Shown: in pieces, positions 52,461 through 54,495 of the stretch
How positions within the stretch are numbered: the stretch's first letter is position 1
Layout of the letters: each line of letters starts with the position of its first letter
Source: Eledone cirrhosa
Lineage: Eukaryota
DNA length: 64,000 nt
Assembly (NCBI GenBank): GCA_964016885.1
Contig: OZ024748.1
Span: 56,668,001 to 56,732,000 of the forward strand
Reading direction: 5' to 3'
Translations under genes and position numbers: made by a program
The notes under the pieces: generated by a model
The model's database searches: none
Told to the model about the DNA's origin: nothing
Seen by the model: only the letters and a program-made list of their open reading frames with translations

Positions 52461-53209
52461 ACTAGATATCGAAGAAATATACTCTTATGTAAAATCTGTA
52501 GATGATGAAATTTCTGCTATTTCCAAATATTATTAGGGGACTGCGCTGAAAATCCTTACAATCTGAAGAGAAAATACAGTTATTTACTCATTCCTATAAT
52601 CAATTAAAGACGAAGAATCTTAGAACAAACTAACTTAGAAAAAACGTACTATACAAGCGCCGTCATCGTGGTGTCAGTCGGGGCATAACACTCGTCAGCG
52701 AGGAGGAAACACATACAAACACTTAAATCATATCATCATACGGAGCCAAACATTACGTTTGGGTGTTAACATACTTATATATACACCATATATATATATA
52801 TATAGGAAAATAAATGTATGACCCCGACGGTATATATATATATATATATATATATATATATATATATATATATATATTTGTATATATATATATATATATA
52901 TATATATATATATATATATATATATACATATATATATATATATATATATATATATATATATATATATATATATATATATACATATATATATATATATATA
53001 TACATATATATATATATAGATAATTTAATATATCAACTAACATAGACGCACAGATGTACGTCCATGCCAGCAAATACACAGGTTATGTCATAGTACCTAG
53101 GTGGTTCAATGCAGGAGGGTGCAGAACAATAATATAAAAGACGTAAAATAAGAAAATATTTTTTAAAAAAATTTTTAAAAAATTTTTTTACTTACTTACT
53201 TAAATTTTC

Positions 53210-53291
53210 ACTCCAACTAATTAGTTTCTGCAATGGGATAAAGACAGTTACATAATCCAACTGTCGAGAATTCATTGCGTCATCAGGGAGT
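53210..53291 (-). ncRNA. Type I hammerhead ribozyme, copy 1
   Basis: ACUCC-CUGAUGA-CGCAAUG..GACAGUU/AACUGUC..CAUUGCA-GAAA-CUAAUUAG-UU^-GGAGU. Predicted cut between 53215 and 53214. Confidence 0.85.
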
Positions 53292-53764
53292 CTATTCTCA
53301 GCTGAGCCTCCAGGCAATGCGCGGACACTGGCGGCTCATATAAAAATAATACTTCGGTAGAAAGAACAGCTAGGCGAGGACTGGATTCTATGTACTGAAA
53401 TTCTCACTGCTTCCAGTCAAATGACCGATTCTAAAGAATCAATCACGTGACATAGAGGCTAGTTAGAAGGAATGGGATGGTAAGATGACTGACGCCTACT
53501 AACACCCCAAAAAAAATTTTGAAGTGGTTTTGGCAGGTTTGCTCGACAAATCAGTGATTTGGAGATAAATATAGATAATTTAATATATCAACTAACATAG
53601 ACGCACAGATGTACGTCCATGCCAGCAAATACACAGGTTATGTCATAGTACCTAGGTGGTTCAATGCAGGAGGGTGCAGAACAATAATATAAAAGACGTA
53701 AAATAAGAAAATATTTTTTAAAAAAATTTTTAAAAAATTTTTTTACTTACTTACTTAAATTTTC

Positions 53765-53846
53765 ACTCCAACTAATTAGTTTCTGCAATGGGATAAAGAC
53801 AGTTACATAATCCAACTGTCGAGAATTCATTGCGTCATCAGGGAGT
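53765..53846 (-). ncRNA. Type I hammerhead ribozyme, copy 2
   Basis: Identical motif 555 bp from copy 1. Predicted cut between 53770 and 53769. Confidence 0.85.
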
Positions 53847-54495
53847 CTATTCTCAGCTGAGCCTCCAGGCAATGCGCGGACACTGGCGGCTCATATAAAA
53901 ATAATACTTCGGTAGAAAGAACAGCTAGGCGAGGACTGGATTCTATGTACTGAAATTCTCACTGCTTCCAGTCAAATGACCGATTCTAAAGAATCAATCA
54001 CGTGACATAGAGGCTAGTTAGAAGGAATGGGATGGTAAGATGACTGACGCCTACTAACACCCCAAAAAAAATTTTGAAGTGGTTTTGGCAGGTTTGCTCG
54101 ACAAATCAGTGATTTGGAGATAAATATAGATAATTTAATATATCAACTAACATAGACGCACAGATGTACGTCCATGCCAGCAAATACACAGGTTATGTCA
54201 TAGTACCTAGGTGGTTCAATGCAGGAGGGTGCAGAACAATAATATAAAAGACGTAAAATAAGAAAATATTTTTTAAAAAAATTTTTAAAAAATTTTTTTA
54301 CTCTTACCATCCCATTCCTTCTAACTAGCCTCTATGTCACGTGATTGATTCTTTAGAATCGGTCATTTGACTGGAAGCAGTGAGAATTTCAGTACATAGA
54401 ATCCAGTCCTCGCCTAGCTGTTCTTTCTACCGAAGTATTATTTTTATATGAGCCGCCAGTGTCCGCGCATTGCCTGGAGGCTCAGCTGAGAATAG

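Follow-up and report, generated by a model that had tools for sequence, protein, structure and literature searches.

We find that a tandem array in the window (the whole stretch of DNA that was analysed, 64,000 nucleotides) forms part of what is probably a young insertion of a non-LTR retrozyme, a non-autonomous element that would have been moved in trans by the RT/GIY-YIG machinery of a Penelope-like element (PLE) of the Neptune type; we put the probability of this reading at roughly 0.78. The array occupies 53014–54302 (1289 bp) and consists of 2.32 head-to-tail units with a period of 555 bp, and comparison of 53014–53747 with the sequence 555 bp further on reveals zero mismatches. A sequence-only reading had described a tandem of about 2.3 apparently identical copies with no open reading frame and with a complete minus-strand hammerhead predicted to cut at 53770/53769 and 53215/53214, and each of these observations stands: the array starts at 53014, all of the named hammerhead elements are found, and a trimer of the unit has no stop-to-stop frame longer than 52 aa. 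It had also placed the end of the array at 54302, which is correct in that the tandem stops there, but it missed an adjoining 354-bp inverted arm at 54302–54655 that is 100% identical to the long arm and carries a third hammerhead. The whole insertion is about 1.64 kb, it is embedded in (TA)n with the repeat present on both sides, where any target-site duplication would be masked, and the GC content of the region is 0.33; we found no match to a Penelope protein within the window. With the unit numbered along the minus strand from the first base past the predicted cut (u1 = 53769), the features of the locus are as follows.

53014..54655, no strand assigned: whole insertion, two head-to-head arms with their 3′ ends outward into (TA)n
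53014..54302, minus strand: long arm, 2.32 exact 555-bp units, 5′ end at u23 (54302) and 3′ end at site 2 (~u201, 53014)
54302..54655, plus strand: inverted arm, 354 bp, from u285 across the cut to site 1 (u83)
53215..53769, minus strand: cut-to-cut 555-nt monomer, the predicted self-cleavage product, highly self-paired
53765..53846, minus strand: type I hammerhead copy 1, predicted cut 53770/53769
53210..53291, minus strand: type I hammerhead copy 2, predicted cut 53215/53214
54496..54577, plus strand: type I hammerhead copy 3, in the inverted arm, predicted cut 54572/54573
53014..53131, minus strand: Penelope-like 'tail', ~118 nt, from site 1 to site 2, at one end only
54648..54655, plus strand: site 1 terminus UUUUAUAU, then (TA)n
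53014..53021, minus strand: site 2 terminus AUCUAUAU, then (TA)n
52831..53013, no strand assigned: (TA)n target, left
54656..57155, no strand assigned: (TA)n target, right, ~2.5 kb, interrupted

The two arms thus meet at an inner junction where u23 is joined to u285, and the tail contains two hairpins that are common to the sister families described below. Elsewhere in the window a 23-bp minisatellite (62 copies) and several kilobase-scale interrupted (TA)n tracts with strong strand skew are present at 4191–5612, 11882–13728, 31820–38501, 39634–41309 and 54651–57155.

A genome-wide search for copies, which the sequence-only reading had recommended, shows that the unit belongs to a dispersed multicopy family. 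The best 39 of 669 first-look candidates contain 228 matches to this unit (family A) on many contigs, and three sister families (B, C and D) are 70–75% identical to it; the matches and loci are the top-scoring copies, and represent neither a random sample nor a census. Our family A set comprises 41 insertions (the 39 scored candidates plus L133 and L139), with 17 insertions in family B (unit 522 bp), 27 in family C (unit 526 bp), three duplicates having been dropped from each of these two, and 14 in family D (unit ~535 bp). A search with the 141-nt tail region gave matches only in family A copies, and much of the unit is also represented in contigs of a second organism (X4). Among raw DNA reads of run X21, 753 contain the head-to-tail joint at which the sequence goes back by 555, which argues against an assembly artefact for the family as such, if not for this individual locus. 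The copy in the window has zero substitutions between its units or its arms and shares its haplotype with three other loci (L031–L033); it is therefore among the youngest that we have seen, in keeping with the recent activity proposed for it from its sequence. We note that copies of the sister families also lie within a few kb of family A or PLE insertions (L045:1–363, L035:8–142, L107:2381–2700 and L086:1–262), which suggests that all three kinds of insertion share (TA)n hot spots.

In the hammerhead, helix I is 5 bp in length, helix II is long and helix III is a 10-nt palindrome; there is an extra C after A9, a U at position 17, and an extra A preceding the GAAA. The hammerheads of PLEs have been described as having an extra nucleotide after A9, a short helix I, a long helix II and a palindromic helix III (PMC4209133), and the G10.1–C11.1 feature of PLE-type hammerheads is present here as well; the extra A before GAAA is not among the PLE features given in the accessible part of that account. 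The Rfam covariance models, put forward earlier as a check, returned zero hammerhead families either at the gathering score or at E values up to 10. Across 230 copies of the four families there is almost no variation in the core, in stem III, or in the UU that precedes the cut, and in 145 of 147 family A units both the core and stem III are free of substitutions. Stem II, by contrast in sequence though not in pairing, varies: 1362 of 1380 cells are paired (counted by motif anchoring, as automatic alignments misregister this stem), with four kinds of pair (C-G, A-U, G-C and U-A) at one position and two (U-A and G-C) at a second, although this covariation amounts to only a handful of compensatory events because related copies are not independent. 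The monomer is predicted to fold with a z-score of −7.2 (none of 100 shuffles is as stable), and 66% of it is paired in the predicted fold of the circle. Judged by this fold and by the covariation between families, the predicted hammerhead is not a product of chance.

It seems likely that its activity is limited. The active fold is predicted to be 4.7 kcal/mol less stable than an alternative in which the core is buried, and this, together with U17 and the extra A before GAAA, indicates that cleavage may be weak; we infer from the modelled folds that it would be slow and partial. For comparison, PLE hammerheads have poor activity alone and do better as dimers (PMC4209133), and eight of nine predicted Xenopus retrozymes gave no cleavage in vitro (10.64898/2026.07.22.740005). 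There is nonetheless a signal of cleavage in the insertions themselves, where 12 of 139 arm 5′ ends, computed against each family's own unit, fall between −2 and +7 nt from the predicted cut, where 2.6 would be expected (p 1e-5). No other 10-nt window holds as many; this one was chosen among three that were tested, and seven of the 5′ ends lie no more than 2 nt from the cut (p 3e-4). The enrichment suggests, indirectly, that the cut was the starting point of some templates, and so that cleavage may occur in vivo. In 157 of 158 arm readings the cut is crossed with an unchanged junction, and most templates must therefore have been either uncleaved multimers or ligated circles.

The ends of the insertions follow a simple rule. 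The predicted monomer does not set the limits of the inserted DNA: the 3′ ends lie away from the cut, either at site 1 (~u83) or at site 2 (~u201), about 83 and 201 nt downstream of it, and at homologous positions in families B, C and D. Of the four TATAT words in the unit only two are used as ends, and 62 of 63 family A 3′ ends run into (AT)4 or longer. Two arms are present in 25 of the 41 family A loci, and 24 of these 25 have one site 1 end and one site 2 end, with none having two alike (binomial p 6e-8). The same arrangement is seen in nine of 14 two-armed insertions in family B, 11 of 15 in family C, and five of eight in family D, the last read by eye. For all four families together, 62 insertions are two-armed; in 49 of them each end falls on a site, and all 49 have one of each and thus a one-ended tail of ~118 nt, there being zero like-with-like pairs. 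The remaining 13 have an off-site or complex end, and several that we inspected abut non-TA sequence, as if cut later; in L166 one end is at site 2 and the other, which runs into TA, lies ~20 nt beyond it, and this locus is a possible true exception to the rule. Of 16 one-armed copies in family A, 14 have their end at site 1. Of 18 informative loci, 17 have arms that agree in haplotype (against a mean of 4.4 and a maximum of 12 in 5000 shuffles), the arms of L051 differing at a diagnostic position, and in four loci a rare variant is common to both arms. Most of the inner junctions join unrelated positions of the unit, with 0–7 nt of overlap or a few added bases; near-palindromic junctions are present in L055, L186, L157 and L160. 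At one locus (L059:4008–4113) several short restarts of u1/u7–u31 lie between the arms, as if the RT had jumped repeatedly near the 5′ end of its template.

These observations suggest a pathway in which the arrays would be transcribed into multimeric RNA whose self-cleavage is slow and incomplete. A PLE protein, probably as a dimer, would bind the conserved two-hairpin region that lies past the cut and between the two sites, and would nick both strands of a (TA)n tract, with internal priming at site 1 from one nick and at site 2 from the other. Each cDNA would extend for a variable length, through several units, and joining of the two 3′ ends by microhomology would give head-to-head arms with the tail at one end. 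As for the template, we lean modestly towards a partly cleaved linear multimer over a ligated circle. That Penelope integration is in general an asymmetric reaction involving both strands, each subunit priming at its own site (site 1 or site 2, ~118 nt apart) and strictly one per strand, and that this causes the end rule, is a broader proposition to which we give an even chance.

Rolling-circle reverse transcription of a 555-nt circle, in line with the circular RNA envisaged by the sequence-only reading, is a sub-case of the retrozyme reading, and we consider it possible but somewhat below even odds. Units within a locus are closer to each other than those of different loci (mean 1.9 versus 4.5 substitutions) and share a haplotype in 85% of within-locus pairs versus 12% between loci, the junctions are exact in all but one of the arm readings noted above, and described retrozymes accumulate as circles (PMC7229834); the homogeneity within loci is nevertheless compatible with a linear multimer as well as with a circle. 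Variants with a period of two or three units in the arrays of L045, L031, L043 and L050 are not expected from a circle, though later duplication could mimic them, and multi-unit arms that end at the cut (L055 and L062) would be expected of a partly cleaved linear multimer, although stalling at the ligation site could produce them too; in addition, the main in vitro template of the anole PLE was uncleaved RNA (PMC11167929). The origin of the inverted arms might instead be fold-back, with self-priming on an antisense template, or a rearrangement of the DNA at a later time. Fold-back has been proposed for rotifer Penelope elements with palindromic junctions (PMC3846280), it would explain the haplotype shared by the arms, and the four near-palindromic junctions would conform to it, but most junctions, including u23/u285 here, join unrelated positions, and the second outer end, which is the other fixed site, is left unexplained; we regard this origin as unlikely.

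The arrays could also be 5′-truncated pLTRs of an autonomous Penelope element that we have not seen, with no independent element involved, and both the anatomy of the insertions and the type of hammerhead match those of PLEs. The sequence-only reading had opposed a retrozyme to a Penelope pLTR; what we see is a retrozyme whose insertion has the full Penelope signature. As to the pLTR, arrays of up to ~10 units (L031, L043 and L045) contain the unit alone; four families each have closed units of 522–555 bp; and in the loci that we fetched the unit is never the terminal repeat of an RT ORF, an arrangement that had been named as grounds for calling it an ordinary pLTR. Furthermore, tblastn with three PLE proteins against 104 family loci matched just three, each in separate flanking sequence. 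We consider this explanation improbable, a little more so than fold-back. An ordinary minisatellite amplified through unequal crossover, its hammerhead being inactive or fortuitous, is largely refuted and in our view very improbable: the periodic variants do suggest some local duplication, and Rfam finds no hammerhead, but the copies are on many contigs with fixed ends in (TA)n, stem II has compensatory changes, and 5′ ends pile up at the predicted cut.

If a PLE supplies the machinery for the retrozyme, candidates are abundant, with 10,597 GIY-YIG candidates in the genome and long RT+GIY-YIG frames of up to 938 aa (L099). In these frames the linker is Cys-rich, as in the Neptune clade, and it is by this motif alone that they are assigned to that clade. 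Five ORF-bearing loci were checked for inversions, and the three informative ones (L101, L104 and L111) show the same pairing, a short end with a tailed one, in (TA)n; counted by hand, the tails measure ~37–66 nt. No pLTR homologous to the unit was found in the 45 GIY-YIG loci compared, from 150 matches listed of the 10,597 candidates. L107 and L086 were considered as partners and rejected, the similarity in each being a separate sister-family copy beyond the TA tract. A PLE of the L102 type was considered for its geometry, its ends lying ~127 and 176 nt after its own cut (from one inverted match, counted by hand), and set aside, as sequence similarity is absent. The family to which it belongs (L102, L103, L106 and L112), with 920 first-look candidates, has a type I hammerhead with U17, and because its pLTRs are ~99% identical it has been recently active.

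Several other hammerhead-like motifs came to light. The Neptune-like 3′ repeats of L099, L100, L107, L113 and L070 contain motifs with a palindromic ACCGGU helix III in which, by eye, C3-G8 is apparently replaced by U3-A8. In the window, three dispersed copies, 86–89% identical, of another type I hammerhead-like motif with a palindromic helix III have minus-strand core starts at 58910, 51885 and 33688; they have ~150 bp in common, two of them run into TA-rich tracts, the motif is also present in L104, and it is probably another PLE-related family. Further short elements with hammerhead-like motifs are present at L107:9700–9900 (minus strand) and in L103, L109, L104 and L086, and the L107 copy shares a motif lying just past site 2 of families A and B.

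The (TA)n tracts do not differ in length beyond site 1 and site 2 (p 0.22); in one-armed copies the TA is longer at the 3′ than at the 5′ end (p 0.03). In family D (L194–L236), (CT)4–57 is present at 21 of 26 terminal copies of site 2 as against (CT)2 at 24 of 24 internal copies, and the expansion persists with a query that ends before site 2. It might be supposed that the RT stutters on a dinucleotide template at initiation, in the manner of telomerase, and so lengthens its target microsatellites; stuttering is not established, however, because CT-flanked TA tracts in the background are expanded as well (34 of 41, Fisher p 0.24), and we consider it doubtful.

As a finding about a ribozyme or a circular RNA alone, this element is one further member of a described class, and the one-ended tail of PLEs is itself already known. 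Nor is the size of the unit new: 555 bp had been thought unusually long, but published retrozyme families range from 51 to 972 bp (Li, Clavereau and Pollet 2026, 10.64898/2026.07.22.740005, who in the sections available argue for their derivation from PLEs). In the literature outside subscription papers, Repbase and bioRxiv supplements, we found no retrozyme with mapped Penelope-type ends or a ~118-nt tail, no counted one-of-each end rule, and no prior report of the family A unit. How PLEs come to insert as tandem and inverted copies with a tail at only one end is described as unsettled (PMC8557442), and the enzyme that moves animal retrozymes is presented as a hypothesis (PMC7229834; 10.64898/2026.07.22.740005). 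An ORF-less 555-nt RNA with two mapped start sites, strict pairing, and near-identical copies makes both questions accessible to biochemical tests, and defines a compact cis element for a TA-targeting retro-integrase. The copies of this insertion provide a testable clue to Penelope integration, namely two fixed starts, one per strand. If the proposal is true, asymmetric dual priming would explain the long-noted inverted repeats and one-ended tail of PLEs, and the four families would constitute a natural minimal substrate and a mechanistic link between animal retrozymes and PLE enzymes.

A formal parallel is twin priming by LINE-1, in which both target strands prime and an inverted arm is joined by microhomology. 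LINE-1 primes at its poly(A) tail and at a variable internal site, whereas our element has two fixed sites, neither of them terminal. Metazoan non-LTR retrozymes (Cervera and de la Pena 2020, PMC7229834; 10.64898/2026.07.22.740005) resemble our element in being tandem, ORF-less, low-GC units with a hammerhead in each, and in being dispersed, highly self-paired, and coexistent with PLEs. By the features that can be read from DNA the element appears to be one of them, and the definition offered at the outset, an ORF-less tandem with a type I hammerhead, fits it. The units in PMC7229834 are 150–450 bp, and ours is larger; expression and circles have been shown for the published retrozymes, whereas the present family is known from DNA alone. 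In those two reports the link to PLEs is one of co-occurrence and pLTR similarity, and the fixed paired ends, inverted arms, and (TA)n target seen here do not appear in their accessible sections.

EN+ PLEs are described as having inverted 5′-truncated arms, a one-ended tail, and microsatellite targets (PMC8557442, PMC3846280), and those of the Neptune type share with our insertion partial tandems as well as each of these features, together with a hammerhead with an extra nucleotide after A9. They differ in having an RT/GIY-YIG ORF, which the unit lacks both in the window and attached to the arms of the 104 loci, and in the length of the tail, which is ~118 nt here but 30–40 bp in the EN+ PLEs so far described in those accounts and 37–66 nt in local PLEs. 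Purified PLE protein nicks and extends both strands, with two internal start sites bounding the tail (PMC11167929). In that in vitro system, Poseidon PAc of Anolis, the two internal bounding sites and the AT-rich target are as seen here, and the extension of both strands and the weak hammerhead are as we propose; the PAc sites are 30–40 nt apart and are reported to lack both homology to the target and any strand difference, whereas ours both terminate in a short run of UA that is complementary to the target, and are used one of each. Non-autonomous PLE derivatives of Chlamys such as MRC1 form, as here, multicopy head-to-tail insertions, although this group is described as without canonical hammerheads and as generally similar at the 3′ end to its autonomous partner (PMC8557442). 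Our element is thus not an autonomous PLE, yet its insertion works like one.
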